Source: an uncultured Clostridia bacterium (GTDB taxonomy: Bacteria > Bacillota > Clostridia > TANB77 > CAG-508). From it: a DNA stretch of 40,000 bases. The position numbers and the translations under genes were made by a program. The first letter of the stretch is position 1, and the number at the start of each line of letters is the position of its first letter. Shown in pieces: positions 5,346 through 29,400 of the stretch. A model generated the notes under the pieces. That model made no database searches. It was not told where the DNA came from and saw only the letters and a program-made list of their open reading frames with translations. The stretch spans positions 9,296 through 49,295 of the forward strand of contig CALXUZ010000001.1 in the NCBI GenBank assembly GCA_944391825.1, given 5' to 3'.

Positions 5346-5575
5346 TAGCAGTATTTTCCTGTTTTTCTTATGTTTAAATTTATCAAATTTAGGGTATTAC
5401 GGAAGTTTGGTTTTCAAGTTTTTGTTTTCCAAAATACCCATATATTACAATTATATTACATTTTTGTCACATTTTCAAGATTTTATAGGTATAAAAGTAA
5501 GTTTTCTCTTGTATCCCTAGGATTTTAAGTGTGTACTTTACATAAATTTGTCATATTTAATTATATAAAACAATG

Positions 5576-5730
5576 GTCTATTTATATTATAACGTTGGTC
5601 CTTGCTGTCGCCTTCCATCCCCATGTCAAAAATATTTATAATATTTTGACTTAAGTTAAGTAGTTGGAAGGCTCTAGAACTACGCTAATGTTCCGCCTGC
5701 GCGTATTGCACTTATATAATATAAATAGAC
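5576..5730 (+). repeat. Intergenic repeat element, copy 1 (unclassified; strand label arbitrary)
   Basis: The core is roughly 85-90 percent identical by eye to 18391-18542 and to the reverse complement of 13412-13571. It has a perfect 16-bp terminal inverted repeat, GTCTATTTATATTATA / TATAATATAAATAGAC. Inside, GCCTTCCA..TGGAAGGC encloses an AT hairpin, GTCAAAAATAT..ATATTTTGAC. Confidence 0.8.
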
Positions 5731-5763
5731 AATTTTAATAATATTTCATTATGAAATTGGGAT

Positions 5764-8746: not shown

Positions 8747-10039
8747 TTATATACAAAATACTGCATATAAAGGAACTGATTTTATATTATTCTCAAATCC
8801 AAAGTTTTTTTCTGAAATTCTAATTGCATATTCAGTGTTATATGTTTTCATATATAAATCCAAGCTTCTTGATTTAGTGTGTATACTAGTTTTTACTTCA
8901 ATTGGTATTATATTTAAATCTTTTTGTATTACAAAATCCAATTCTGCCTTTCCTTCAGATTCCCAATAATATGGCTCATATCCTTTTTTAATTAGTTCAT
9001 TTGCAACATAGTGTTCTGTGAGTGGCCCCATTGAAATCATTGTTGGAGGTGTACTTAAATCTATTTGATATAATGGATATCTAGCTTTATTCACAAATAA
9101 TCCAACATCACTCATATATAATTTAAATGAAGATAAGTCTTTATGCATTTCAAGTGGTAACTCTGGAGTAACTTTATATATTTGATTAACTATTCCACTA
9201 TTTTTAAGCCACAATATTGCTTCACCAAATATACTAGATGTAGCTCCCTTTGAAATTACTTTATATTGAAATTTTTGATTATCTTTTGCAAGCTGTACAG
9301 GTATTGAGTCAAATGCTGATATTATTCTATTTGACAAACTATTATCTGCATATTTAGTCATATCACTTTTATAATCTGACAATATTTCTGCTTGAATATC
9401 TATACTAGAAATTACCTTTTGCTCATCTAAATATGTTTGCACAACTTCTGGCATGCCACCGATTACAAGATATATTCTATATAGTTTCAAACATAATTCG
9501 TGTATATCATTATCCATCCTCTCATCATTTTCAAAATGTTTTTTTATCTCATCAATTAAATTTTCTCTACCCACTGCAATTAAAAATTCTTTAAAAGATA
9601 TTGGATACATTGTAAGTGTTTGCACTTTGCCCACTGGAAAAGAATAATTATCCCTGTTCATAGTTATTCCTAGCAATGAACCTGCTGCTATTATATGATA
9701 CTCGTTTGCATCTTCGCAAAAATATTTTAGTGAGGTTAATGCCCTTTCATTGTCTTGTATTTCATCAAAGAAAATTAAAGTTTTGCCTGGAATTATTTTT
9801 TCACCATAAAATAATTCTAGCTTATTTATTATATATTTTGCATCTATTGTTTCTTCTATTTGTGAACTCATCTCTTTATTAGTCTGAAAATTAACATATA
9901 TTAAATTATCATAATATTTTTTTCCAAATTCCTTTATTATATATGTTTTACCTACTTGTCTAGCACCATGGATAATTAAAGGTTTTCTTTTATCTGATTT
10001 TTTCCATTTTATCAAATCATTTATAATTTCTCTTTCCAT
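8747..10039 (-). CDS. AAA+ ATPase of the COG1373 / DUF4143 type
   Basis: 430 aa with Walker A GARQVGKT and Walker B LIFFDEIQ. The C-terminal region (ELDFVI...IPIEVK) looks like a restriction-endonuclease-like fold. Family assignment is from memory of this common architecture. Confidence 0.8.
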   Translation of the reverse strand: MEREIINDLIKWKKSDKRKPLIIHGARQVGKTYIIKEFGKKYYDNLIYVNFQTNKEMSSQIEETIDAKYIINKLELFYGEKIIPGKTLIFFDEIQDNERALTSLKYFCEDANEYHIIAAGSLLGITMNRDNYSFPVGKVQTLTMYPISFKEFLIAVGRENLIDEIKKHFENDERMDNDIHELCLKLYRIYLVIGGMPEVVQTYLDEQKVISSIDIQAEILSDYKSDMTKYADNSLSNRIISAFDSIPVQLAKDNQKFQYKVISKGATSSIFGEAILWLKNSGIVNQIYKVTPELPLEMHKDLSSFKLYMSDVGLFVNKARYPLYQIDLSTPPTMISMGPLTEHYVANELIKKGYEPYYWESEGKAELDFVIQKDLNIIPIEVKTSIHTKSRSLDLYMKTYNTEYAIRISEKNFGFENNIKSVPLYAVFCI

Positions 10040-13193: not shown

Positions 13194-13411
13194 AAGATAT
13201 TTGTTCCCTCCTTTAAAAGCAACAATTGTATTATACCATTTTTTAGAAGGTTTGTCAAATTTTTGTAACATTTCTGTAATACTACGGCTAGTTGCTTTTC
13301 AAGATTTGGGTGTTTTTTTAAGCTTTTGTAAATCCCCATATTACATTATATGCGAGCTTGTACAAAAATATGTCAATTTTGACGAAAATTTTTGGCAAAA
13401 AATTATTATAG

Positions 13412-13571
13412 ACCCACAATAGTATTATGAAAGTGCAGTCCGCGCAGGCGGAGCGTTAGCGTAGTTTTAGAGCCTTCCACCTACCAAACCTTGTCAAAAA
13501 ATATAAAATATTTTTTTGACATATGGCTGGAAGGCGACAGCAAGGACAAACGATATAATACAATTGTGGGT
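13412..13571 (-). repeat. Intergenic repeat element, copy 2 (inverted relative to copies 1 and 3)
   Basis: The reverse complement aligns with copies 1 and 3 across the whole core. The terminal inverted repeat is ACCCACAATAGTATTAT / ATAATACAATTGTGGGT, with one mismatch. Confidence 0.8.
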
Positions 13572-13615
13572 ATATTATATTATTGCAAAATTTTGTAAAA
13601 AAATCTCCGTCCACA

Positions 13616-13645
13616 TTGACATTGATTTTTTTTCATAAATATGCT
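13616..13645 (+). promoter_or_regulatory. Possible lemA promoter
   Basis: TTGACA (13616-13621), an 18-nt spacer, then TATGCT (13640-13645). The -10 is weak. Confidence 0.3.
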
Positions 13646-14307: not shown

Positions 14308-15090
14308 TTAATTTACAAATAGTTTCAGTGCGTTTTCATATGTTATTTTAGCAATTTCTGCTAATGGCATTTCTTTTACTTTTGCTATTTTTTCTGCCAT
14401 GTATTTTACATTTCTAGAGTCATTGCGTGTTCCTCTATGTGGCTCTGGTGCCAAATATGGGCTATCTGTTTCTATTAATATTCTATCTAGTGGCACAGCT
14501 TTTATGGCTTCATCTGCATTTTTGGAGTTTTTAAATGTAATTGGTCCTGCAAATGAAATATAAAATCCCAGCTTTAAACCTTCACGGATTAAATCTAAGT
14601 TTAGTGGAGAGCAGTGGAAAACTCCCTTTTTTATTGGTGTAATTTCATTTTTTAATATATCTAAAGTATCATATACTGCTTCTCTTGTGTGTATTATAAT
14701 TGGCAAATTTAGTTCATTTGCAAGTTCTATTTGCTTTTTAAAAGCATGCTTTTGTTCCCATTTATTTTCTTTATTCCAGTAGTAGTCTAAGCCAATTTCA
14801 CCAATTCCCACTACTTTCTTATTTTTAGCTAGTTCCTTTATTTCATTTAATTCTTTTGATAATACTTCATTAAAATTTTTGCCAGGTATGTCATTTGGCG
14901 AAATTCCAGCAGTTGCATATATATATTCATGTAAATTGGCAATATTTATAGCTTCTTTTGAAGAAGCTATATCATATCCTGCACAAATTAATTTTGTTAC
15001 ACCACTATCATAAATACTTTTTAGTATTTCTTCCCTATCTTCACTAAATTTTTCATCATTATAATGTGCATGTGAATCAAAAAATTGCAT
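14308..15090 (-). CDS. tatD: TatD-family metal-dependent hydrolase/DNase
   Basis: FDSHAHY, GEIGLDY, IIHTR, FHC and ETDSPYL motifs are present. Length is 260 aa. Confidence 0.9.
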   Translation of the reverse strand: MQFFDSHAHYNDEKFSEDREEILKSIYDSGVTKLICAGYDIASSKEAINIANLHEYIYATAGISPNDIPGKNFNEVLSKELNEIKELAKNKKVVGIGEIGLDYYWNKENKWEQKHAFKKQIELANELNLPIIIHTREAVYDTLDILKNEITPIKKGVFHCSPLNLDLIREGLKLGFYISFAGPITFKNSKNADEAIKAVPLDRILIETDSPYLAPEPHRGTRNDSRNVKYMAEKIAKVKEMPLAEIAKITYENALKLFVN

Positions 15091-15102
15091 TTTTTCCTCC
15101 TG

Positions 15103-15477
15103 TTATTCTTTAAATAGAATTGTAAAACTAGCAATTGCATATTCTGCTATATGTGAAAGGCTTAAATCCTTGCTTTCCACATTTTGCAAATTTAATTCTT
15201 TCAAATCTGCTATAGGTTTTCCATTTTCGACATTATAGATTTTTATTTTAGTCCACAAATCTTCTTTAATAGAGATTTCATCAGAAATAGCCTTGAATAT
15301 TGCCTCTTTTGCAGCAAATCTAGCTGCATAATGCTGATATTTCATTTTTCCTGTATTTTCACAAAATTCCGTTTCCTGCTCTGTATACACTTTATCTAAA
15401 AAGCTTTTTCCTTGCCTTTCTATTGCTTTTTTTATTCTTTCTACTTCTATTATGTCTATTCCAGTTTTAACTCTCAT
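15103..15477 (-). CDS. acpS: Holo-[acyl-carrier-protein] synthase
   Basis: 124 aa with GIDIIEVERI...FAAKEAIFKA. Confidence 0.9.
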   Translation of the reverse strand: MRVKTGIDIIEVERIKKAIERQGKSFLDKVYTEQETEFCENTGKMKYQHYAARFAAKEAIFKAISDEISIKEDLWTKIKIYNVENGKPIADLKELNLQNVESKDLSLSHIAEYAIASFTILFKE

Positions 15478-15486
15478 TTTGCACTC

Positions 15487-16719
15487 CTATTTACTAAATA
15501 CTACAAAAAGATTTATTATATTTAAAATAACCATTATTGCTATAACAAGCACAAGCCAGGTATTCCCTCTTTTTGTTTTTTCTATTTCATAATCTTTATA
15601 TAATAAATCATATTGCTGTTTTAGTTTATTAAAGGTTTCTTTCATATCTTGCTGCTCTGAATAGTATTTGTCCAAAATTTCTCCAGTTTCATCTCCTGTT
15701 ATTTCATAAATCCAATCTTTTTTAGCAAAATCTAAAAATTCATTTTTAATTTTTTTAAACTTTTTGTTTTGTTGCAATTTGTACATTAGTTTTTTTAGAT
15801 ATATTTTTTTGTATAGACTGAAAATGTAATGGTATAAGTGCTCATTTTCGTGTTCAAATGGTACTGTAGTATAGTTTTTAATATTATTATCACATGTAAA
15901 TAACACAGCTGAATTACTAGTAAAGCCGTAATATAAATATTTTTCCTTATATACATTTTTTTCTTTCAATATAATGTCTGGCAATTGTTCTTCTGCAGGT
16001 CTTATTTGCCTATATTTTTCAAATTCTTTTTCTACAAATTTTATATCTGTTTTCTCGTTCCACTCATTTTGATTTAAGCATACATATGAATATGTAATAA
16101 GCCTATCAGTATCTAAATTAATTTGCTTTGCCTCTATATTTGGTCCTGCAATTTCTTGGATAAATTCTGAAAATTTTTGCATATTGTCAAATTTTTTAGT
16201 CTGAATTTTTATTGCTTCATATTCTTTGCTATGTTCTGCTTTTGAATTTATATCCCTAAATTTGTAATTAAAATTTAACAAATCAGAAAACTGCTGACCT
16301 TCTGTTAATGCAGTTTTAAACAACAAGAAGCATACTCCAGTATTAAAACATATAATTTCTACTTTTGTAATATCAAAAAATATTCCGTTTCTTTCGCCTA
16401 TTTTACCTGGTATATCGCCACTCAATTCATATTCAAACATATTGCATGGCTTTTTACTTAATAATGTGGCTTGCATTTTTTTGTCCATGTCATCATAATC
16501 TTTTATCCCTTTTTTAGAAGTATCTAAAGACCAAAACATTTTGTCTTTTATCTCAGGCAAAAAATATTTATCTATTCCTACATCTTTTTTTCTATCAAAT
16601 AATTTTAATTTACATTTTGGATTTTTCAGTAAAGTATAAATATGTGGCTTATATTCATTTTCTTCTATAAGATATGGATATATAAAGTATGTATATTGGT
16701 ATTTCAACTTAAAGTCCAT
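15487..16719 (-). CDS. Hypothetical protein with a coiled-coil region and a single C-terminal TM helix
   Basis: 410-aa ORF with an RBS, tightly packed between the WG-repeat gene and acpS. The C-terminus is ...KRGNTWLVLVIAIMVILNIINLFVVF. I recognised no diagnostic motif, and the loose resemblance to RMD1/YagE (DUF155)-type proteins is unverified. Confidence 0.7.
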   Translation of the reverse strand: MDFKLKYQYTYFIYPYLIEENEYKPHIYTLLKNPKCKLKLFDRKKDVGIDKYFLPEIKDKMFWSLDTSKKGIKDYDDMDKKMQATLLSKKPCNMFEYELSGDIPGKIGERNGIFFDITKVEIICFNTGVCFLLFKTALTEGQQFSDLLNFNYKFRDINSKAEHSKEYEAIKIQTKKFDNMQKFSEFIQEIAGPNIEAKQINLDTDRLITYSYVCLNQNEWNEKTDIKFVEKEFEKYRQIRPAEEQLPDIILKEKNVYKEKYLYYGFTSNSAVLFTCDNNIKNYTTVPFEHENEHLYHYIFSLYKKIYLKKLMYKLQQNKKFKKIKNEFLDFAKKDWIYEITGDETGEILDKYYSEQQDMKETFNKLKQQYDLLYKDYEIEKTKRGNTWLVLVIAIMVILNIINLFVVFSK

Positions 16720-18319: not shown

Positions 18320-18390
18320 GGTGTTTTGAAAGTTTTTATATAACAATGTGGACAGAGATTTTTGACAATTTTTTTGCCAATTATATTATT

Positions 18391-18542
18391 CACACAATTG
18401 TATTATAACGTTTGTCCTTGCTGTCGCCTTCCATCCCCATGTCAAAAATAAATTTTTGACATGGGTTAAGTAGCCAAAAAGGCTCTAGAACTACGCTAGC
18501 GCTCCGCCTGTGCGGACTGCACTTATATAATACAATTGTGTG
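18391..18542 (+). repeat. Intergenic repeat element, copy 3
   Basis: Perfect 17-bp terminal inverted repeat CACACAATTGTATTATA / TATAATACAATTGTGTG. The core matches copies 1 and 2, and the central stem CCCATGTCAAAAAT / ATTTTTGACATGGG is perfect. Confidence 0.8.
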
Positions 18543-18614
18543 GAATTTGTAACATTATTGCTTTTTCTTTCAAATTGTCAAAATCTCTCTTTTCATAGAC
18601 TGACCTGTCCCAAA

Positions 18615-19646
18615 TCACCCCAAATTGGGCAAAAAGGGACTGTCCCCAATTACTCCAACTACTACTGTCATGTCGTCCTTTTGTCTGCCGAAATCGCTAT
18701 CTATTGCTTCTTCTAATATCAGGTTGGCTATTTGTTGGGCGTCTTTTGTTTCTAGGTCTTCTAGCAGATATCTTATCCATAGTTCTTTGTTTATGTATTC
18801 ATTATTTGCTTCTATTACGCCATCACTGCACATTACTATTATGTCTCCTTGTTGTAAGTCGTAGTCATATACAATTAAATCACTTTTTTCTAGCACTCCA
18901 GCTGGTAGTGTGGTTGATTTTAGTAATTGTACTTCACTTCCTCTTTTTACATATGTTGGGCATGCGCCATTTTTTATAAATTCCATATTTCCACTGTATA
19001 AGTCTAAAATTTGAATATCAAGTGTGGCATACATGTCTTCTTTACTGTTTGCAAGCAATATTGAGTTTATTAATTGTAGTGATGCTTCTTTTTCAAAGCC
19101 TGCTTTTAATAGCCTTTCTAGCATTTTTAATGCTATTTTACTACTTTTCATTGCTTCTGGTCCTGAGCCCATACCATCACTAATTGCTAACAAATATTTT
19201 CCATCTTCTAGTTTTGTTTCTAAGTGACTGTCTCCTGATACTATTGAATCTGCTTTTGTACTTGAAGATACTCCTATTTGCAATTTATATTTATCTTTTG
19301 ACATGTATTTAAATTTGCACTGCTCTGTATTTTCCCTTAGTCCACATACTTGTGATTGAATTAGGAATTTGTCTCCTAATGATTTAGTTAAAATTCTAGA
19401 TATTTTTTTTATATCACATTTTGTTCCTTCTATTTCATCACATAGTTTTGTACATACTTCTACAAAGTACCTTCCGGAATTTGCTCTTTTAATTTTTAAT
19501 GTTTCTATTTCTATATCTTTTTCTTTTAATAGTACTTTAATTTCTTGCTTTTTTTCTTCAAATGGGTCAATTTCTTTTTCTTCTTTCATTTCATTTGCTA
19601 AGTTTGATATAGCATTTGACACCTCTTCTAAACCGATTAGCAACAT
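18615..19646 (-). CDS. spoIIE: Stage II sporulation protein E, C-terminal regulatory + PP2C phosphatase part (second frame of a split gene)
   Basis: PP2C/SpoIIE motifs are present: LLAISDGMGSGPEA, MYATLD, VMCSDGV, DDMTVVV. The ORF overlaps the upstream ORF by 56 nt in a different frame. Confidence 0.8.
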   Translation of the reverse strand: MLLIGLEEVSNAISNLANEMKEEKEIDPFEEKKQEIKVLLKEKDIEIETLKIKRANSGRYFVEVCTKLCDEIEGTKCDIKKISRILTKSLGDKFLIQSQVCGLRENTEQCKFKYMSKDKYKLQIGVSSSTKADSIVSGDSHLETKLEDGKYLLAISDGMGSGPEAMKSSKIALKMLERLLKAGFEKEASLQLINSILLANSKEDMYATLDIQILDLYSGNMEFIKNGACPTYVKRGSEVQLLKSTTLPAGVLEKSDLIVYDYDLQQGDIIVMCSDGVIEANNEYINKELWIRYLLEDLETKDAQQIANLILEEAIDSDFGRQKDDMTVVVGVIGDSPFLPNLG

Positions 19647-21141
19647 TCCTTTTGCTTTCTTCCATTTTCTTTTTCCAAATGAAATTAATTTTGCTCATCC
19701 TATATGAAGAATTAATTGCCTTTATCATTTTAGATACATCTTGTATTACTTGTTCATTTTTTTCGTAAAAGCCTACTAAGTAATTATTGTGTTTTTCTAA
19801 AATTCCTACAAGTTGTTTTTCTGTTATTACATCTTCTTTTAATAAAAGATGAAAAATATCATCTATGATTCCATTTTGGTTTTCATATATTTCATCATAT
19901 AGCATGTTTTCTTCAAGTTCTTGCAAGTTTATTCTTAATTCTTCTATAAAAATTTGCTCATTTGATAGTTCTTGTTGTCTTAAGTCTTCTTCGTTTATAA
20001 CTGTACTTGCCGCTTCACCATAGCTTTTTGCCATTTCATTTATTGCCTCTGACATGTTGTTTAACCTGAATATTGCATCTTCATTTTCTGTTAAGCTTCT
20101 GCCTGAAAGTGTAGTTTCTGGCAATAGTTTTTCTCTGCCTAAAAAGTCTTGTATATCTATTTTTACTTTTTTAGGAACTGCTAACAATCCTAAAAATGCA
20201 ATTAAAATTTCTTGAATAAGTATTACAGGCACTGTGTTACCATTTGCTGCATATGTTAATGCAATGTTACCTAGGATAAATCCAATTACTACTCCAACTT
20301 TTCCAAGCCTATTAAATAGCCCGGCTATCATACCAGATATGGCATATGAAGCAACTAGTATTGGCTCTGAGCCACTTATTATTCCAAGTGTAACTCCTAT
20401 TAGCACACCTGAAGTTGCACCAATTAGCATGCCATTTTTCCAACCTAAAATTAGTACAATTAAAATACTTAATATATTTTTTACACTATAACCAAAAATT
20501 GTAAAATTATCTAATGCACAAATTGCAATTGCAAGTAATAAGCTTGTCCCCATTACTTCTTCTACTGAAAATACTGTTTTTTTACCAAATTCTTTAATAA
20601 TTGGGATACTGTTTGCAAATATTTTGTAAAACACAAAACTGCTAATTGCTAGCATTATGCTTGTTAGCAAATCATAAACATAAAAACTGGTAAAAAACAT
20701 TGGTATTATTTGCACTGCAAGCACTGATATAAAAAGCCTAGAACCAAGCCTTTTTTGTTCATTTACTATTTCTTCTTCTCTTGGCCTTTTAAATAATACT
20801 AGTGCAAAAAATACAAGTGTTGTTATAAAATATGTAAAAAGACTGCTTGTACCAAATTTTAGCCATGTTCCCATTAATGTTAATATGTACACTATTCCAA
20901 CTGGTGAATAATTGCTAAGCATTGCTGCTAAAAAGCTAATTGCAAATGGGCTTATGCTAAGCATTAAGTTTTCCGAACTAAATCCAACCATTGAAATTAA
21001 GAAACTGATAGTGTATAAAATAATATTTTGTATGCCGAAAAGATTTTTTAAAGTCTCTTTTATTAATTTTTTATTCTTTATTTCTTCTTGCTCATTTTCG
21101 CTATTTTCGCCTGTAAAATCCTTTAATATATTTTGAAACAC
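19591..21141 (-). CDS. spoIIE: Stage II sporulation protein E, N-terminal polytopic membrane part (first frame of a split gene)
   Basis: 516 aa with about ten TM helices followed by a soluble linker. The GTG start follows AGGGGTGA. The frame ends inside the start of the PP2C-encoding ORF. Confidence 0.75.
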   Translation of the reverse strand: MFQNILKDFTGENSENEQEEIKNKKLIKETLKNLFGIQNIILYTISFLISMVGFSSENLMLSISPFAISFLAAMLSNYSPVGIVYILTLMGTWLKFGTSSLFTYFITTLVFFALVLFKRPREEEIVNEQKRLGSRLFISVLAVQIIPMFFTSFYVYDLLTSIMLAISSFVFYKIFANSIPIIKEFGKKTVFSVEEVMGTSLLLAIAICALDNFTIFGYSVKNILSILIVLILGWKNGMLIGATSGVLIGVTLGIISGSEPILVASYAISGMIAGLFNRLGKVGVVIGFILGNIALTYAANGNTVPVILIQEILIAFLGLLAVPKKVKIDIQDFLGREKLLPETTLSGRSLTENEDAIFRLNNMSEAINEMAKSYGEAASTVINEEDLRQQELSNEQIFIEELRINLQELEENMLYDEIYENQNGIIDDIFHLLLKEDVITEKQLVGILEKHNNYLVGFYEKNEQVIQDVSKMIKAINSSYRMSKINFIWKKKMEESKRNVANRFRRGVKCYIKLSK

Positions 21142-21394: not shown

Positions 21395-24300
21395 TTATTT
21401 TTTTAGAACTTTCTTTTTAATAAAGATAATTCCTACTGTTATTACTCCTAATGCTACTATTGATAATGTAATATACACTACTATTTCTCCAATACCTGTT
21501 GGTGGAATTACAATTACTTCTTCTGCTTTAACACTATCTACTTCGCTAGGTTCTTCGGCAGTTGGATTTTGGTTACCTTGAATTGAGTATGCCATCCTTC
21601 TACCCACACTATTTGAAATATTAACAATCTCTGCAATATTGTTATATGTTCTATCATCTGCTGTGTTTTGAGATGTCATTAATTGCGTTAAAACTAAACT
21701 TGTTGTTGTTTCTTCACCTGGTGTTAATTCTTTATTTAAGCTTTCTGTTTTTATAATTGTGTTAAATGATTTAACAGGTTCTTGTAGTTGTGTATCCAAT
21801 CCTTCTGAAGATACTACATTTTCAACTGAAGCCCATCCACCTTCTGTATTATCATCTGCCCTAAATTGAAGGTTATTTGCTACATAATCTACTACTGTAT
21901 TAGCAGTTGTTGTTACAACTTGATTTGCTCCTCTAGCTTTATAGTAGAATTCCTGTCCTTCATAATCTGTTTCACCTGCATTTGTTACTGCTAGTTCATA
22001 TGTGATACTAATAGTTGCACCATGCATTAACTCATTATCTATTTCTATCTTAATTAATCCACTATTATGGCTAGCATCATATCTTGAAGCTACTAAGTTA
22101 TCAATTTCTGTTCTGTAAGCATAACGATGATCTTTATTATAATATTCTTCGTATTTGTTATTGTCCATTTCGTCAATTAAGTTGTATTTCTTGTTTGCTG
22201 CCCAAGTAATATCTGTTGCGCCTTTGTTAGTATCAATTAATGTGCTTCCATTTGCTAAGGTTAATTTTACATTAGTTATTTTCTTTGCTAGCTCTAGCTG
22301 TGCTTTTGGTCTTTCTGTTAAACCAAAGTCTACATTATTTAATGTATAGTTTCCGTTATAGTCATTATCATATAAGTATATATCAGCACCATTGCTATTT
22401 GTATTATAACCATCTGTGTTTGTTCTGTTATATTCTCCTTCTAGCACAATTATCGCAGTTTCAGCTGTCATATTTGTGTTTTGTGCTAATTCATTTATTA
22501 GTTCATTGTTAACATCATCTGCGTATGGAGAAGCTAATACTTGAGCTTTGTGGTTAGTTACATTTGAGCTACTATAATCATTAACCTCTTGTCTTCTCTC
22601 CCAAATATCTTTTGCATCTGATAAATTACCATTAAATGCATCTGATGCCTGAATATTGTAGTATTCTTCTGTATAGTTAGATATTCCTGAGTTGTTATTT
22701 AGGTTTTGCTGATATACTGTAGATTTAAAGTCTTGACCATTATATGATACCTCATTTGCTCCACCATTTTCATCTGTTAATATTGTTGCTGTTGTATTTC
22801 CATAGTGGAAGCGTATTATATAGTTACCTGGTATTATGTACACATTACCACTTTCATTTGTTCTAAACTCATAACGTCCATTTTCATCTGTTGTGGTGGT
22901 TTGCCATACATATTCATTTCCATTTTCTAGTTTTTCTACTAGTTCTACAGTGACACCTGCTATTCCTATTTCATCATCTCTTAAGCCATCACCAATCATT
23001 GCATTTGAAACATTTTGTGTTCTTTCATCTTCCCAAACTGTACCATTAATGCTTCTTATTGCTTCATTATCCAATGTTACCTTTATAGATTTAGCACGGT
23101 CTGTGTCGTCTTCAAAGTTTCTTTCATATCTGTTTCCATTAATATCATCTATACTTAGGTTACCTGGGTTAGAATCAATATCTATTAATCCTGCTGAGTC
23201 ATTGCTGTTCATTATTTGGTCGTTTGGTAATTCTGTTCCATCTCTATAGTATGTAGTATATCCATTAATTTCAGCATAGTTTTGTTTTAAGCTATTGTCT
23301 TCATCTAATATTACAGGACCATTGTTATCTGACCTTACTTTAAATGTCAAATAAATATATGCTTCTTCACCACTTGCCAATTGTTTTCTGTCAAGTCCTC
23401 TAATATATACAGAATTATATTCTGATTCCATACCAGATTGCTGGCTGTTTCTTCCATATCTACTGCTATTATGGCTATCTATATCTTTTCCTGTAGTTCT
23501 TAAATCTCCTTGTAATGAAAGACTGTTTATAGTGTTATAGTAATCTTGCTCTGATAATGAAATTTCTGAATTGTCGCCATCACTATTGTTTTTATACATT
23601 ACCCAAGATAGGTCTTCCATATATTCATAATCTTCATCATAGTAATCTACTACTTCTGTTATTTCACTTAAAATGCTTGTAGAACTATTTCTTACAGTTA
23701 GCTTATATGTTACATATAGTTCTAGCTCGTTATCAGCACTAACCCCATTTGTTGTAGCACGATATGTATAGTCTGCTGGGTAAAGCTCTCTTGAGTATGC
23801 AGTTGCATAATAGTTATTGTAGTCCCTCATTCTTAATTGGATTTCCCAATAGTATTTATTTTCTATTTCTTCTGCATAATCCAAGTATGCTTGATAGTTT
23901 GCTAGATTTGTTCTATCTTGTTCATATATAGCTCTTAATCTAGCTAGTTCTTCTGCTTCTGCATCTGTCATTTGACTTCTCTTATCATATGTATATACTT
24001 CTGTTTTACCATTTATTCTTGTTGCTGCATATGCTATATCTTTTCTTAAAGCCAAGTCAACTTCTTGTCTTCTCCACAATCCTTGATTTACAAAGAACTG
24101 TCCTGGGTAAATCGGACTATACACTACCTCATCAAATACATCTGCATTTAAATCATATTCTCCATTTTGCATTTGTTCAATTGTTGTATATTCTGCCCTA
24201 TCATTTATTTTAAATTGATCATATACTGGATATAAATCTAAATCTCCGTCTTGTGGCTTAGTATATGATTGTATTTTACAATCTTCAATAAATTGTAGTT

Positions 24301-26476
24301 TTCTCCATAGTTCTGTATTATTTCCTGCTATTTCCCTATATATATCTAGCATTGCATCTTCATCTGGGAATACCTTGTTCTCTAAGATATATTGTTTTAT
24401 TTTTGTACTTATTATTCCCTCTTTTAATATATTGGTTTCTACAATATTACCATTATTAATCTCATAAAAACCGTCAATTAATGCAATGCTATTATCCTTA
24501 TAATAATCTCCATCTTCATCTAATACAAATCCCATTAGCTCATATTGTGAAAAAGTTTCATTATATCCATTTGCTAATTTTCCACTATTTAGTGAATCAC
24601 TAGATGGATAATTCAATGGAGATGAGCCTATTTCTACAAATTGCTCATTATAATCTGTTCGCTCTGATTCTTCTTCCGTTCCTTTTGAGGTGATTTTCCA
24701 ATCATTTGTGTTATATAATTCTGCATTTACCATTTGTGTAACAGATGAATATTGTCTTTCTTCTGTGTTTAGGTACTCTGTTGGTAAATATGTCTGTCCA
24801 TTATATTCAAATGTTACATAGTATTTTCTCATTGGGTCCAATCCTTCAAATAAGTAATTGCCATTTGCATTAGTATATGTTGGGTTTACTCTATACATTA
24901 TTTGTTCATCTGTAATTCCTTCTTCTTCAGGATTTGATAATAAGTTTGCAATTTCTCCGTCTTCTGTATATAGTGTAACTTTTACATTTGGTATAGCTCT
25001 ATCCATACTATTTTCTGAGTTTGTAAGTATATCGCTTTGACCATCTGCAATATTTTCTTTTCCAGTAGGCACATCTTCCCAAACATGTCCACCTAAATCC
25101 ATAGTCATTTTTATTTTATTTTTACCAATTATTATTTCTTGTTCGTATAAACTTCTTATTGCATCTGCTGCCATTAGCCATTGTTGTTGCATTTCTGATA
25201 AATAGCATGTTGTTATACAGCCATGGCAACTTCTCCAACCAGTTGGAACACGCTTACCAGTTTCTGGATCTGTTTTGTATTTTCTATGTCTATGTGGATT
25301 ATAGCTATGGTTATGGCTATATTGTACTGTGTATTTTGTACCTCTTAGTTTTGTATATTCACCATTTGCCATCATATATTTAAATTTTATTTTAATTGAT
25401 ATAGATGCTATGTATTCATCTTCATCTTCCACTTCTTCATTAGGATTACTAAATACTATTTGGAAGTCTTGTCCAGGTGCAGGATATATTTGCTCTGTTT
25501 CATCAACTTTTAAATCCTCACTTGGCTCAAAATATTCTGGCTCTTGAGCTTCACCGTAAATTCCTGTTGTAAGGTCTTTTAGAATTATTTTTTCTATTTC
25601 AATGTCATCTCTGACCTCTTCGCCTTTTCTGTTATACCCAACTACTGTCATCTCAGAAATACCTGCAAATGCAATTTCACCATAAATTCCATTTGTGTAC
25701 TCTACATTAAAAGGTCCTACTATGAACTCTCCTGTTTCTTGATTTACTTTTGTATATAATCCATCAAGGTCTGTTTTATCTTCTGGCTGTAATCCTTTGT
25801 CCCTTACTTCAGTATCATATTTAGCATAGTCTTGAGCTTCTTGGTCATAAATAGATGGTCCATCATGAACAGAATCCGCACCACCAACAATCAAATCATC
25901 ATCTGCTGGCACATAGTCTTCATCTGACTCAATATAAATAGATTCATCTCTTAAATTCCAAATTGCTTTTTGTTTTTCTTCGCTCCACTCTCCAATAGGT
26001 TCATCAGAAACAATATATGCTGCTGCTACTGGCAAGTCATTTGTCTCAACTGGCACAAATCTTGGTGGAGTTGTAGAGCCTTGATATGGTGTACTAGCAT
26101 CACCACAACTACTTCTATATGTATTTCCCACTAAAGCTGCAGCCTGACTATAAAGTAAATTATAGCTAAATCTAAGTGGTGAACCTGGGTTAATACAATA
26201 TATCTGAAAATCTTGATATACTGGTAGAGAATATGAATTTGTGCCATATATAGCTTCCCATGTACCTGTATTAATATGGTAAGAATATGTTTCTGGGTCT
26301 TCTTCTCCATCTGCAAGGGTTCCAATATCTGTAGTTTCTGCTTCTTCTAGCGCTTTTAAGTTAGTATCTTTTGCTTGCATGGTTATTGTTTCATATTTAC
26401 TTACTTGATATATCCCTATTACTGTAAGAACAGCAATTACAAAGAATACACAGGTTTTTATAATTTTCTCCTTCAT
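21395..26476 (-). CDS. Giant cell-wall-anchored surface protein: TQXA thioester-like N-terminal domain, SdrD-B-like domains, IPPTG sorting signal
   Basis: 1693 aa with RBS GGAGG and an N-terminal TM/signal. It contains IYCIN (Cys94) and KQKAIW (Gln169). Two SdrD-B-like units are present (GGHVWEDV...NANGNYLFEGL; GTVWEDE...DENGRYEF...GNYIIRFHY). The C-terminus is IPPTG, then a TM helix, then KKKVLKK. Confidence 0.85.
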   Translation of the reverse strand: MKEKIIKTCVFFVIAVLTVIGIYQVSKYETITMQAKDTNLKALEEAETTDIGTLADGEEDPETYSYHINTGTWEAIYGTNSYSLPVYQDFQIYCINPGSPLRFSYNLLYSQAAALVGNTYRSSCGDASTPYQGSTTPPRFVPVETNDLPVAAAYIVSDEPIGEWSEEKQKAIWNLRDESIYIESDEDYVPADDDLIVGGADSVHDGPSIYDQEAQDYAKYDTEVRDKGLQPEDKTDLDGLYTKVNQETGEFIVGPFNVEYTNGIYGEIAFAGISEMTVVGYNRKGEEVRDDIEIEKIILKDLTTGIYGEAQEPEYFEPSEDLKVDETEQIYPAPGQDFQIVFSNPNEEVEDEDEYIASISIKIKFKYMMANGEYTKLRGTKYTVQYSHNHSYNPHRHRKYKTDPETGKRVPTGWRSCHGCITTCYLSEMQQQWLMAADAIRSLYEQEIIIGKNKIKMTMDLGGHVWEDVPTGKENIADGQSDILTNSENSMDRAIPNVKVTLYTEDGEIANLLSNPEEEGITDEQIMYRVNPTYTNANGNYLFEGLDPMRKYYVTFEYNGQTYLPTEYLNTEERQYSSVTQMVNAELYNTNDWKITSKGTEEESERTDYNEQFVEIGSSPLNYPSSDSLNSGKLANGYNETFSQYELMGFVLDEDGDYYKDNSIALIDGFYEINNGNIVETNILKEGIISTKIKQYILENKVFPDEDAMLDIYREIAGNNTELWRKLQFIEDCKIQSYTKPQDGDLDLYPVYDQFKINDRAEYTTIEQMQNGEYDLNADVFDEVVYSPIYPGQFFVNQGLWRRQEVDLALRKDIAYAATRINGKTEVYTYDKRSQMTDAEAEELARLRAIYEQDRTNLANYQAYLDYAEEIENKYYWEIQLRMRDYNNYYATAYSRELYPADYTYRATTNGVSADNELELYVTYKLTVRNSSTSILSEITEVVDYYDEDYEYMEDLSWVMYKNNSDGDNSEISLSEQDYYNTINSLSLQGDLRTTGKDIDSHNSSRYGRNSQQSGMESEYNSVYIRGLDRKQLASGEEAYIYLTFKVRSDNNGPVILDEDNSLKQNYAEINGYTTYYRDGTELPNDQIMNSNDSAGLIDIDSNPGNLSIDDINGNRYERNFEDDTDRAKSIKVTLDNEAIRSINGTVWEDERTQNVSNAMIGDGLRDDEIGIAGVTVELVEKLENGNEYVWQTTTTDENGRYEFRTNESGNVYIIPGNYIIRFHYGNTTATILTDENGGANEVSYNGQDFKSTVYQQNLNNNSGISNYTEEYYNIQASDAFNGNLSDAKDIWERRQEVNDYSSSNVTNHKAQVLASPYADDVNNELINELAQNTNMTAETAIIVLEGEYNRTNTDGYNTNSNGADIYLYDNDYNGNYTLNNVDFGLTERPKAQLELAKKITNVKLTLANGSTLIDTNKGATDITWAANKKYNLIDEMDNNKYEEYYNKDHRYAYRTEIDNLVASRYDASHNSGLIKIEIDNELMHGATISITYELAVTNAGETDYEGQEFYYKARGANQVVTTTANTVVDYVANNLQFRADDNTEGGWASVENVVSSEGLDTQLQEPVKSFNTIIKTESLNKELTPGEETTTSLVLTQLMTSQNTADDRTYNNIAEIVNISNSVGRRMAYSIQGNQNPTAEEPSEVDSVKAEEVIVIPPTGIGEIVVYITLSIVALGVITVGIIFIKKKVLKK

Positions 26477-26491
26477 GATATCCTCCTTTCA

Positions 26492-29400
26492 TTAATTATT
26501 TTTTTTATTTAAAACATGTCTTTTTATTTCAAATATTCCAATTCCTAATAGCATAACTACTGCTAATGAAAGTGTTATATACATTATAACCTTACCAGTT
26601 GCTAATGAAATCATTATATCTGCATTTGAAATATCATCTTCAGATTCTAGTCTATTTGCTTCTATTGAGTCATAATCTTTAATACCTTGGTCATTATAGC
26701 TTTCATATATTTCAGCATTGTTATTAATTATTGTGCTAAGGTTTTTATCTGTAATATTTAGACTTAATATTAATGTAACTTCTTTACTTTGTCCTGGCTC
26801 AATCTTCTCATTTGCCAATGCAGTATTATATACTGCTCCATTATTATCAGATATATACCAGTCATTATTTAATTCACTATTAAATCTTACATCTTCTGGC
26901 AAATAATCTATAATCTTTTTAACATATCCAGGTATTTGTCCTTCATTTGTTACAACTATTTTGTATTCTATAATCATACTGCTATTGTTAACATCTCTTG
27001 AATAAACATCTTGTTTAGTCAATTTTGAGTTTTCATAATAATATACTTTTGTTCCTGCAGATGGTGTTGTTAGTGTTATTTTGCTTATGTATTTATCCAA
27101 TCTTAGGTCAAATTTTTCTGCTATATAAAGTCCAATGTCTATATCTCTTGCATTTGAACCAGCAATTTTGATTGTGTCTGTTACACCTGCATAGCGTTGT
27201 TCTCCATCTAAAACAATTCTCATATTTATTGCGTCTGAGTTATAGCTTTCAGTCGCTGCTTCTGCTTGATAATTTGTTATATTGTATTTTCCAGCATCAT
27301 ATAAGAATACTACTAAATATTCACCTGATACTAAATTTGAAAACTCATATTTACCTTCACTATCAGTTGTTACAATTTTTTGTTCTCCTGTATCTTCATC
27401 TTTTATAATTTGGCTATTAGCTTTATTTATTAGCATTACTTCTATTCCTGGCAAAGTTTGTTCTTCTTCATCTCTTATTCCGTCTTTATTTTCATCAAGC
27501 CATGCAGTTCCTGTGATTTTATATCTGTTTATTGTAGGTCTATCTGTATTATCAGCTTGATCATGGATTTCCTGATAGTATTCTATAATGTTTGTTACTT
27601 CATTTGTATTTCTACTTTCATAATTATTTGCCAAAATAGTCATGCTATTTTTTATTTCTTTATCATTAGTATCTGGTAAAAGTCCAGCTTTTGCTACTAC
27701 ATTAATTGTGGTAGTTTCCCCACTTGATAGTTGATTTATTGATATTTCTAATCTACCATTTGTTAGATTTGTAATTGTTTCTTCTTTACCATTATATGTG
27801 TAAGTAGCATTTACTAAAGTTAAACCTTCTGGCAATGTATCATATACTTTTATTCCAGTAACTCTAGAGCTACCAGCATTTTTTATTGTTAATGTATATG
27901 TAACATTACTTCCTTCTTTTACATATCTAGGGCTTGATGTTAATTCTGATATTTCTAATTTTGCCACTTCAACATTGTATTCTGTTATGTTTGAATATTG
28001 TTCTTCTATTCCATCTGCTCTTGCTGTGGCAGTTATAGAAATGTTACCTTCAATTTCTCTTGCCACTTCAACATCTAGCATTATAGTTTTTTGAATACTT
28101 AATGTTCCAATATTAACAGACACAGTGTTATTAGCTTCATTATATGTTATCCCTTCTGTGGTTCCATTTTCTGCTGACCAACTATCTTTTACTTCACCAC
28201 TTACATATCTTAGTCCTTCTGGTAATGGAACAGTAACTACTACATTATTTAAATTTCCAGCTCCAGAAATATTTTTTAGGTTCAATGTATAATTTAGCAC
28301 TTCACCCTTTTTAATTACTTGTGATTCGCTGGTTTCTGAAATTAATTGTAAAGCTATGTCTCCATCTTCTAAATTAAATATGTAATCATTAGAAGGTATT
28401 GAATTTTCAATATCATCTGCAGTAACTGTCACTTTATGCACTATTTCTTTTGGATATATTGGTCCTGTATCTTCAACAGAAGCAGTTTCATCATTTATTT
28501 GTGGAACTATATCATCATCAAATTTTATATAATATGCTACTTGTTTGCTTTCACCAGCTTTTAATTCTCCTACTGTTAAAACCTTTTCCTTGATTGTTTC
28601 TTCATAAAATCCATTTCCTGTTACATAATCAATAAAAATTGCATCTTCTGGAACTGGAACATTTACTTTAATATTTTTTACAGTTTCTGAGCCATCATTT
28701 TTTACTGTAGCTTTCATTTTTACAATTTGTCCTTCGCGAACAGTATCTGAAGTTGAAGCTAGTTCTACAGAAATGGCTGGTGCTTCTCCAGTTGTTAATC
28801 CTATTGTTCCTGCAACTTTTGATTCTCCCAATGTAGCATCTTCTAATTTATTATCATAATATACTTTATATGTAGTATAACTGCTATTATCATAATTTAA
28901 GTTTTCTGGCAATTCTGCTTTATATGTAAAGCTAAATTGTGCTCCTGTTCTAATTTCTCCACTTGGTACAATTAAATAGCTTTTAACTTTGCTTAAATCG
29001 CTTGGGTTCTCTGTCCAAGCATTTTCTGAATTTATTAAATCCTTAGTTGCCTCACCATTTGTGCTATAATAAATTTTTACTTTACCTTCATCTATTCCAC
29101 TTACTGAAATTTTTTCTTTCATGCTCATAGTAAAGTTACTACCAAGTTCTTCTGTTCCATCTATTTGCACATTTCCACTAAATGGTAACCTACCTAATAC
29201 AAATACATTTTCAATACTATTTGCATAATTGTTTACAATTGTTCCCCCAATTGTAACTTCTTTTGCTTCATCATTTACATTTATAGTATCTACTTTTGTT
29301 TCAGTTTCTGTGTTTGAAATTGTTTTTGTTCCATTGTATCCACTCATGTTGTTTTCTGTAACAACACCATTTGGAGATACAATTTCAATTTTTGTACTTG

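Follow-up and report, generated by a model that had tools for sequence, protein, structure and literature searches.

The stretch of DNA analysed here (the window; 40,000 nucleotides from an uncultured Clostridia bacterium) is ordinary chromosome, carrying mreBCD, a PBP2-type gene, minC, radC, spoIIE, tatD, acpS, a two-component system and genes for large adhesins. Three of its intergenic spacers contain a copy of one non-coding repeat element. An earlier note, made from the letters alone, had recognised in these spacers three regions sharing one core, and an alignment of the window confirms copy 1 at 5576-5730 (+), copy 2 at 13412-13571 (reverse complement) and copy 3 at 18391-18542 (+). Besides coordinates, strands and alignment, the counts of two 20-mers bear this out, as GTCCTTGCTGTCGCCTTCCA and AAGGCTCTAGAACTACGCTA occur three times each in the window, while none would be expected by chance (100 shuffles). 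The cores are, as the note had also stated, richer in GC than their surroundings (41.5-47.5%, against 29.5% for the window); five of the six flanks measured have 17-31% GC, and the sixth, the 16 nt to the right of copy 3, has 50%.

No transposase or recombinase gene lies anywhere in the 40-kb window, and no direct repeats flank any of the copies. A search for small open reading frames (ORFs), including possible type I toxins, found in the three window copies just peptides of 6-17 codons, with no ribosome-binding sites and in frames that are not conserved. Within 40 kb, the earlier statement that flanking direct repeats, a plausible ORF and a nearby transposase are all lacking is therefore correct. 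Each of the three copies is directed, with one and the same relative orientation, towards the start of its neighbouring gene, which encodes an adhesin, LemA or a WG-repeat protein.

Anatomy and distribution of the element

When 12-15 copies are aligned, a common layout is observed: an outer inverted repeat is followed by an unmirrored middle zone, an inner arm and an asymmetric core, after which the same parts return in mirror order (Table 1). The outer repeat is ~25 bp long, with a consensus of about CAATGTGGACGGAGATTTTTGACA; the middle zone, of ~25 nt, is not mirrored and has indels; and the inner arms form a complementary inverted repeat of 15-22 bp (16-17 bp in the window copies) around a core of ~120 nt. 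Whole elements measure about 230-270 bp, and the three window copies about 228-255 bp. The repeats of 16-17 bp had been described as terminal, but complementarity resumes outward of them in the second, outer inverted repeat, which is near-perfect in the best-preserved copies (24/24 in L015, 27/29 in L147 and 22/24 in L076; L and W numbers are our working labels). In total, complementarity reaches ~70 nt per arm, and whole elements are predicted to fold into rods, with energies down to -118 kcal/mol.

Three parts make up the core: the A part, which is invariant, an AT hairpin (H1) and the B part, in which a small GC hairpin (H2) is found. The tip of H1 is variable in length and shows mirrored changes across copies (TAT/ATA in L074 versus TAG/CTA in L118b). 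Cores are much better conserved than arms: they are 90-95% identical between copies, and in the aligned arms both substitutions and indels separate the middle zones and some stretches of the outer repeats. For the core half common to the window and L068, identity is 94%, against 85.5% in adjacent coding DNA. The outer repeats differ greatly in sequence from copy to copy, as seen in L147, L015 and W2. Nevertheless, in the DNA examined, the outer-repeat motif was found solely beside cores, and every core found sits in the same kind of outer frame. Two details of the earlier description have to be corrected. Copy 1 had been said to differ from the other copies at about six outer positions; the main difference is instead a mirrored 8-bp insertion, CTATTTAT / ATAAATAG, beside a ACAATTGT-like box. 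Likewise, the pair GCCTTCCA/TGGAAGGC, thought to bracket a hairpin, is not kept in copy 3 or its subfamily, which carry AAAAAGGC.

Table 1. Position and parts of the three window copies of the element
Feature	Position	Strand	Remarks
Copy 1, whole element	5527..5754	+	about 228 bp; from arm-to-arm alignment (41 nt at 80%), fold and strain alleles; outer ends uncertain because the outer repeats have decayed
Copy 1, left inner arm (GTCTATTTATATTATA)	5576..5591	+	holds the mirrored 8-bp insertion CTATTTAT relative to the other copies
Copy 1, asymmetric core, conserved	5592..5714	+	41.5% GC
Copy 1, right inner arm (TATAATATAAATAGAC)	5715..5730	+	
Copy 2, whole element	13371..13621	-	251 bp, bounds TGTCAAT...ATTGACA; from filled-versus-empty alignment and arm alignment (76 nt at 74%)
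Copy 2, outer repeat, core A side (TGTCAATGTGGACGGAGATTTTTTTACA)	13594..13621	-	terminal TTGACA
Copy 2, left inner arm (element orientation; CCCACAATTGTATTATA)	13554..13570	-	
Copy 2, core	13430..13553	-	44.4% GC
Copy 2, right inner arm (element orientation; CATAATACTATTGTGGG)	13413..13429	-	
Copy 2, outer repeat, B side (TGTCAATTTTGACGAAAATTTTTGGCA)	13371..13397	+	partly decayed
Copy 3, whole element	18344..18598	+	about 255 bp
Copy 3, left outer repeat (CAATGTGGACAGAGATTTTTGACAA)	18344..18368	+	
Copy 3, left middle zone	18369..18390	+	unmirrored; TATTAT -10-like box 16 nt past TTGACA
Copy 3, left inner arm (CACACAATTGTATTATA)	18391..18407	+	
Copy 3, core	18408..18525	+	47.5% GC; A part 18408-18435, B part 18466-18525
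Copy 3, AT-rich core hairpin H1 (CCCATGTCAAAAAT..ATTTTTGACATGGG)	18436..18465	+	
Copy 3, GC core hairpin H2 (TCCGC-CTGN-GCGGA)	18503..18516	+	fourth loop base varies between alleles
Copy 3, right inner arm (TATAATACAATTGTGTG)	18526..18542	+	
Copy 3, right outer repeat (TTGTCAAAATCTCTCTTTTCATAG)	18575..18598	+	degenerate
Element ends			CAMTGTGGACGGAGATTTTTGA type

The element belongs to a lineage-specific, dispersed family of fold-back repeats. A 17-mer scan of species-representative genomes, whose remaining matches listed were mostly due to chance, and strain comparisons with many assemblies of the window species, obtained through look-ups of window proteins and including GCA_947857065.1, place the family at no fewer than 14 loci, all intergenic, in two related uncultured Clostridia species. 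Among the matches listed, at least nine loci are in the metagenome-assembled genome (MAG) CALXVE01 ('uncultured Clostridia bacterium BRZ_NB bin52'), as full copies or as copies cut by a contig end; contigs end inside elements, and assemblies break there. The hosts are uncultured gut Clostridia related to 'Clostridium sp. CAG:508/567', and relatives of SigG and ScpB, which share about 82-84% identity with them, carry the names Clostridium sp. CAG:567 and CAG:508. The neighbours in MAG CALXVE01 are sigE/sigG, spoIIP, glmS, proS, scpB and an aminotransferase gene, with mixed relative orientations, and the ftsZ region is also among the loci where the family is found. Consequently, the link to envelope-protein genes and the fixed orientation to which the earlier note had drawn attention hold for the three window copies, but not in the related species, and are not properties of the family. 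No match to the element was found in phage and plasmid collections, in JGI metagenomes (two patterns) or in viral contigs, and the core sequence gave no match in the library of papers searched.

Regarding genes of mobile DNA, a PD-(D/E)XK 'transposase' gene (PDDEXK_2, Rpn/YhgA-like; L074 1560-2618) stands 410 nt away from one copy of the related species, and is the sole gene of this type seen near any copy. At ~8 kb past the high end of the window, L134 encodes a large serine recombinase (Resolvase + Recombinase + Zn_ribbon_recom; 364-1935), which adjoins a truncated Zip-family ORF and is probably part of an integrated element; no link between it and the repeat family was found.

Mirrored arm changes and the comparison with RNA families

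The claim that the arms are complementary, with their differences mirrored, is strongly supported by the alignment of 13 copies and alleles, in which 15 of the 20 inner-arm pairs are changed on both sides, a value reached in none of 500 shuffles. In addition, pairing is found in 91.5% of arm cells, and in 33-53% once the partner column has been shifted. Over 15 copies and alleles, the pairs of the arm helix comprise 283 Watson-Crick pairs, two T·G, three A·C and 12 other mismatches. Many of the switches from one pair to another are transversions, and mirrored substitutions are also found 10 nt or less from the core (L116 GTATTGTAA/TTACAATAC; L015 TATTAAAA/TTTTAATA). In the core helices, none of the 30 pairs is changed on both sides, and the GCCTTCC/GGAAGGC helix is broken in one subfamily. 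Moreover, folding is predicted to be equally good on both strands. The near-absence of G·U pairs, the mirrored 8-bp insertion and the lack of covariation in the core helices argue for copying at the DNA level, and point to arm complementarity being maintained in the DNA and not as an RNA helix.

These observations bear on one of the explanations proposed in the earlier note, a structured small RNA with a co-varying closing helix. In the form considered here, a multicopy gene would encode an RNA that begins at the inner arm, and the closing helix would join its 5′ and 3′ ends. Such an RNA would agree with the conserved, GC-rich core and with the statistically strong covariation of the arms. In most copies, a TATAAT-like box precedes the left inner arm by 3-8 nt, and H2 with the T-run that follows it scores as a strand-specific terminator in some of them (L015, L076). 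However, G·U is essentially missing among about 300 arm pairs, while transversions and a mirrored insertion of 8 bp are present. No core helix covaries, the reverse strand folds as well, and the complementarity of ~70 nt per arm extends past any plausible transcript end. The element also functions or persists in both orientations relative to the promoters of the arms, and matches resembling promoters and terminators are inconsistent from copy to copy. Rfam returned no match for the whole 40-kb window at the gathering threshold, and sensitive scans of W1, L116 and L015 gave only noise of the long-hairpin and plant-miRNA type. A small RNA gene is, consequently, highly improbable.

The single family suggested in these scans, IS605-orfB-II, shares some sequence with the element but scored 17.1 bits (E = 1.1), where the threshold is 88; it appeared in just one copy, and was seen in neither W1 nor L015. 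As this match was not reproduced and no TnpB-like gene is adjacent, it has been treated as chance. Other known kinds of sequence were also considered and rejected. ARAGORN found no tRNA or tmRNA, and a string on the reverse strand that resembles a D-arm does not pair. An integron attC site would have R''/R' boxes and a cassette context, and neither was found. The CS-6 motif of single-strand origins, TAGCGT, is present on the reverse strand as a mere 6-mer in a chromosomal housekeeping context. Finally, neither Spo0A boxes nor promoters for sporulation sigma factors gave a consistent match in the core.

Inversion, exchange and loss between strains

The interior of the element flips in place through recombination between the element's own inverted repeats. 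Between sigE and sigG, the interior of L148 (~200 bp) matches the reverse complement of that of L147 at 192/205 positions, versus 134/242 when compared directly. The outer repeats of both alleles retain their own asymmetric markers, which places the crossover inside these repeats, and the flanks are 98-99% identical. At scpB, either orientation is found beside an identical ScpB protein, in four and four assemblies; the flanks are fixed, and the inverted stretch that they enclose has 219 bp and an identity of 92.7%. The middle zones at spoIIP-pgi have changed places from one species to the other and, at the spoIIE locus, the related species carries a truncated copy in the opposite orientation. 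Inverted alleles also differ by single-nucleotide polymorphisms (SNPs) and indels, and recur in independent samples. Since, in addition, the repeats are imperfect and do not exceed 30 bp, a length below that of the final k-mers used by metaSPAdes and MEGAHIT, we infer that an assembly artefact is unlikely, and this explanation was rejected.

The earlier note had also suggested invertible DNA whose arms are kept matched by recombination. Inversion is indeed real at sigE-sigG, scpB and spoIIP-pgi, but the clear cases recombine in the outer repeats, which the note had not described; no recombinase turned up in the window or beside the copies of the related species, consensus scans gave no consistent sign of an output that depends on orientation, and all strains examined have the three window copies in a single orientation.

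It could be argued that these inversions are programmed. In this model, the copies would be 'mobile invertons', whose repeats or core are recognised by a recombinase encoded elsewhere that flips the interior and, with it, turns an internal promoter or terminator toward or away from the neighbouring gene. The model would explain the inversion of the interior between repeats at three loci, with both orientations common at scpB, and the location of the window copies, upstream of surface-protein genes and in one orientation, is the usual setting of invertons (PMC11892184). Promoter-like hexamers lie in the arms, H2 and the T-run could act as a terminator on one strand in some copies, and the conserved core could serve as the site of a recombinase or an accessory protein. 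By contrast, no dedicated invertase or recombinase was found in the 40-kb window or beside the copies of the related species, where, as described above, the neighbours are housekeeping genes in mixed orientations. Consensus scans of the segment found promoter and terminator sites in some copies only, with variable spacing and no conservation between copies. The outer repeats (L147, L015, W2) differ greatly in sequence, unlike sites for a single recombinase. Furthermore, the window copies are fixed in orientation in all assemblies, and the SNPs and indels that separate alleles of opposite orientation indicate old haplotypes rather than fast switching. We consequently consider a programmed switch unlikely. 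A portable, self-contained inversion module, in which a recombinase acting in trans would recognise the core together with the paired arms and flip the interior of ~200 bp as a mobile phase-variation switch, seems to us distinctly unlikely. If it were correct, any gene could acquire such a switch as its neighbour, among them those for the adhesin, LemA and the WG-repeat protein in the window.

The presence of the element also varies between strains. Copy 2 (251 bp) is absent from L118 and L125, where the empty site has neither arm sequence nor a target duplication. The end of this copy provides a perfect TTGACA 18 nt upstream of TATGCT, ~37 nt before the start of lemA (window 13616-13645); as strains that lack the copy have no such -35 box, copy 2 may alter the transcription of lemA. 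In L119 (1-5000) and L120 (1-1460), a segment that carries TnpV, HTH_36, YhcG-like and DUF4160 genes takes the place of the DNA found elsewhere upstream of lemA, and its breakpoint coincides with the insertion point of copy 2 (window ~13620). In L117, copy 3 is replaced beyond its first ~22 bp by an island of 1.1 kb, and its left outer repeat remains. This island (14683-15990, equivalent to window 18366-18600) begins directly after that repeat and contains an Xre-type HTH gene, two small ORFs and ATGACATAAAATGTC-type repeats. A fourth locus carries an element in L118 and L130-132 that is absent from the window. It is located between response-regulator and AI-2E transporter genes, ~150 bp from the position of an AAA_14/DUF4143 ATPase gene (window 8747-10039; L118 6304-6750), and the presence of the element anticorrelates with that of the gene.

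At sigE-sigG, the window species has four structural alleles: a lone 18-mer that resembles the repeat, two different full elements and one mosaic. L139 and L141 are mosaics, and L142-145 possibly carry a lone outer repeat. As the 18-mer is also found in a third species, it must be either an old flank or an old remnant. Between sigE and sigG, where the other two species carry the element, a third related species (L155-L159) has an inserted ORF of 215 aa with no Pfam match. The idea that the arms are duplicated target DNA is favoured by this ancestral 18-mer, which lies beside the sigE-sigG element and resembles the outer repeat, but disfavoured by the empty site of copy 2, which holds none of the arm sequence.

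Copies exchange sequence with their paralogues and decay by deletion. Different family members occupy one site in different strains, and the interior of L179 is nearer to its paralogue L074 (227/242) than to the allele L175 at the same locus (220/241). Among the alleles of copy 3, the element itself shows 3-6 times more differences than its flanks. Many copies are decayed, truncated or deleted, as exemplified by spoIIP-pgi, where MAG CALXVE01 has the full element and the window species is fixed for a core-less deletion derivative, an outer palindrome around one ACAATTGT box at its centre.

The core-less allele might suggest that the mobile unit is only the core with short ends (TTGTATTATAACG...TATAATACAA), which would insert at the dyad centre of existing palindromes and leave the target halves as arms. 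Consistent with this, the inner arms and core of L179 act as one exchangeable block, and an insertion in L118 ends exactly at an inner arm. However, the core-less allele arose by an asymmetric deletion that also removed 19 nt of one middle zone and is, thus, not a pristine target. In addition, the mirrored substitutions within 10 nt of the core (L116, L015) would fall in the ends of such a unit, and all of the cores found are within the same kind of outer frame. For these reasons, insertion of a core-only unit is hardly probable.

The abundance of decayed, truncated and deleted copies, together with the lack of a target-site duplication and of a partner gene, would also be expected of an inert, decaying relic in which the mirrored changes derive solely from the generic correction of quasi-palindromes during replication. 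Nevertheless, two species whose coding DNA is about 85% identical share the same core consensus, several copies keep near-perfect outer and inner repeats, and one site may be occupied by different members in different strains. We therefore judge an inert relic very unlikely.

Other observations concern the surroundings of the copies. Shortly past the stop codon of spoIIP, strains differ in whether they carry a member of a second family of palindromic repeats, of ~50 bp (TTGGGGACGGGTCCCAGTCACCCTATTTAGGGTGACT.GGGACGC). This family often adjoins the main element, and its ends resemble the outer repeat of the latter (GGACGG). Its sites include L161 3638-3685, L011 1190-1222, L018 407-450 and 507-539, L068 321-353 and L134 5468-5510, and degenerate motifs of this family are found at window 18600-18650. 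Next to copy 3, spoIIE is split into two overlapping ORFs on the - strand (18615-19646 and 19591-21141), coding for a 516-aa N-terminal part and a 343-aa phosphatase part. All strain assemblies retrieved show the identical split, which rules out a sequencing error in the window as its cause. At its 3′ end, the spoIIE ORF runs into repeat-like GGGAC.GTCCC sequence. Two giant surface-protein genes are adjacent at window 21395-26476 and 26492-31606 (1693 and 1704 aa). The first product is annotated in strains as SdrD_B-type with CarboxypepD_reg, and the length of these proteins varies between strains from 1664 to 1717 aa.

Interpretation and comparison with known systems

With a confidence only slightly better than even, we propose that the element represents an undescribed family of non-coding, fold-back repeats similar to REPINs and to miniature transposable elements with inverted repeats (MITEs), whose arms are homogenised by recombination that also flips the interior. 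Among the explanations of the earlier note, that of a REP/ERIC/MITE-like palindromic element was thus right in kind, as the repeats are dispersed, intergenic, multicopy in two species and polymorphic in presence. According to our proposal, the family would have entered intergenic DNA beside housekeeping genes by moving or recombining as a unit, possibly driven in trans by a putative transposase or recombinase. Arm-to-arm recombination or template switching (gene conversion) would copy changes, including insertions, from one arm to the other and would, in this way, produce the mirrored differences observed between copies. The core may be the part that is recognised sequence-specifically, or may otherwise be kept by selection, while the arms would need only to match each other.

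Several observations do not fit easily with this proposal. There is neither a target-site duplication nor a clean empty site, and the four comparisons of filled and empty sites are messy; deletion, or the replacement of one allele by another, may lie behind them, and they do not demonstrate recent transposition. In the window and beside the copies, the sole candidate for a partner transposase or recombinase is the PDDEXK_2 gene at 410 nt from one copy. Gene conversion between arms has been inferred and not seen as an event, and recent single-arm changes in the copy 3 alleles L118-L120 lack a mirror. None of the four loci of the window species is inverted in any of the 5-9 assemblies compared for each. 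Furthermore, simple homogenisation does not explain why an asymmetric middle zone lies between perfect inner and outer repeats, a pattern that also fits selection for two separate helices, and it leaves the strong conservation of the core unaccounted for.

REPINs (hairpin-forming REP doublets, which RAYT transposases move), in our opinion the closest analogue, are about 70-110 bp long and mostly known from Proteobacteria. To our knowledge, inversion in place has not been reported for them. While REPINs conserve two terminal REP 16-mers and vary the spacer, the element described here conserves an asymmetric centre and varies its arms, and no RAYT gene was found in the window. Both kinds of repeat are short, non-coding, intergenic and multicopy, and form a hairpin that spans the whole element. 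As in our family, compensatory changes on both sides of the hairpin are common in REPINs and single remnants are left behind (PMC3116915). No target-site duplication is seen in either.

The element also has the general characteristics of MITEs, as it is small (230-270 bp), has no credible ORF, is dispersed over 14 or more loci in two species, and bears terminal inverted repeats (the outer repeats, of ~25 bp). The Correia repeats of Neisseria, ERIC/IRU, bcr1 of Bacillus and RUP and BOX of pneumococci are likewise of 100-300 bp, with terminal inverted repeats, intergenic and species-specific, may have promoter-like boxes at their ends and form long hairpins. By contrast, such families have conserved terminal repeats and usually a short target duplication (TA in Correia, TTTAT in bcr1), neither of which is observed here. 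Our element differs from them in addition by its two nested repeat pairs and by a core that is better conserved than its ends.

A different comparison is that with processes acting on palindromes in general. The correction of quasi-palindromes by template switching (Ripley/Lovett, E. coli) and gene conversion between inverted repeats, as in the concerted evolution of large inverted repeats, explain mirrored substitutions and mirrored insertions with no need of selection, as well as inversions between short inverted repeats. Nevertheless, quasi-palindrome correction is a general mutational process and not an element family, and alone explains neither the spread of the repeats nor the conservation of their core. 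Mirrored, or 'compensatory', changes are not proof of an RNA helix: here they are nearly pure Watson-Crick, include an insertion and coexist with DNA inversions.

Invertons, such as fimS, the promoters of Bacteroides polysaccharides and the RecV switches of Clostridioides difficile, are similar in that a segment of ~200 bp is enclosed by inverted repeats of 20-30 bp, that both orientations are found and that some copies lie upstream of surface-protein genes (PMC11892184, PMC11602134). Unlike invertons, the element described here has no nearby recombinase and no repeat sequence conserved between copies, and no conserved promoter was found in it; many of its neighbours are housekeeping genes, its orientation differs between strains, as judged from the assembled contigs compared, and it is itself a dispersed repeat. 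If flipping were enzyme-driven and regulatory, the family would constitute a dispersed mobile switch, relevant to phase variation in gut bacteria. In any case, its copies mark hotspots of inversion, deletion and allele swapping between strains beside core genes (sigE/sigG, spoIIE, scpB) of a gut Clostridia species. With this family, the small group of intergenic repeats of the hairpin type gains a Firmicutes example of unusual layout, in which a conserved asymmetric centre is flanked by variable arms and enclosed by two nested repeat pairs.

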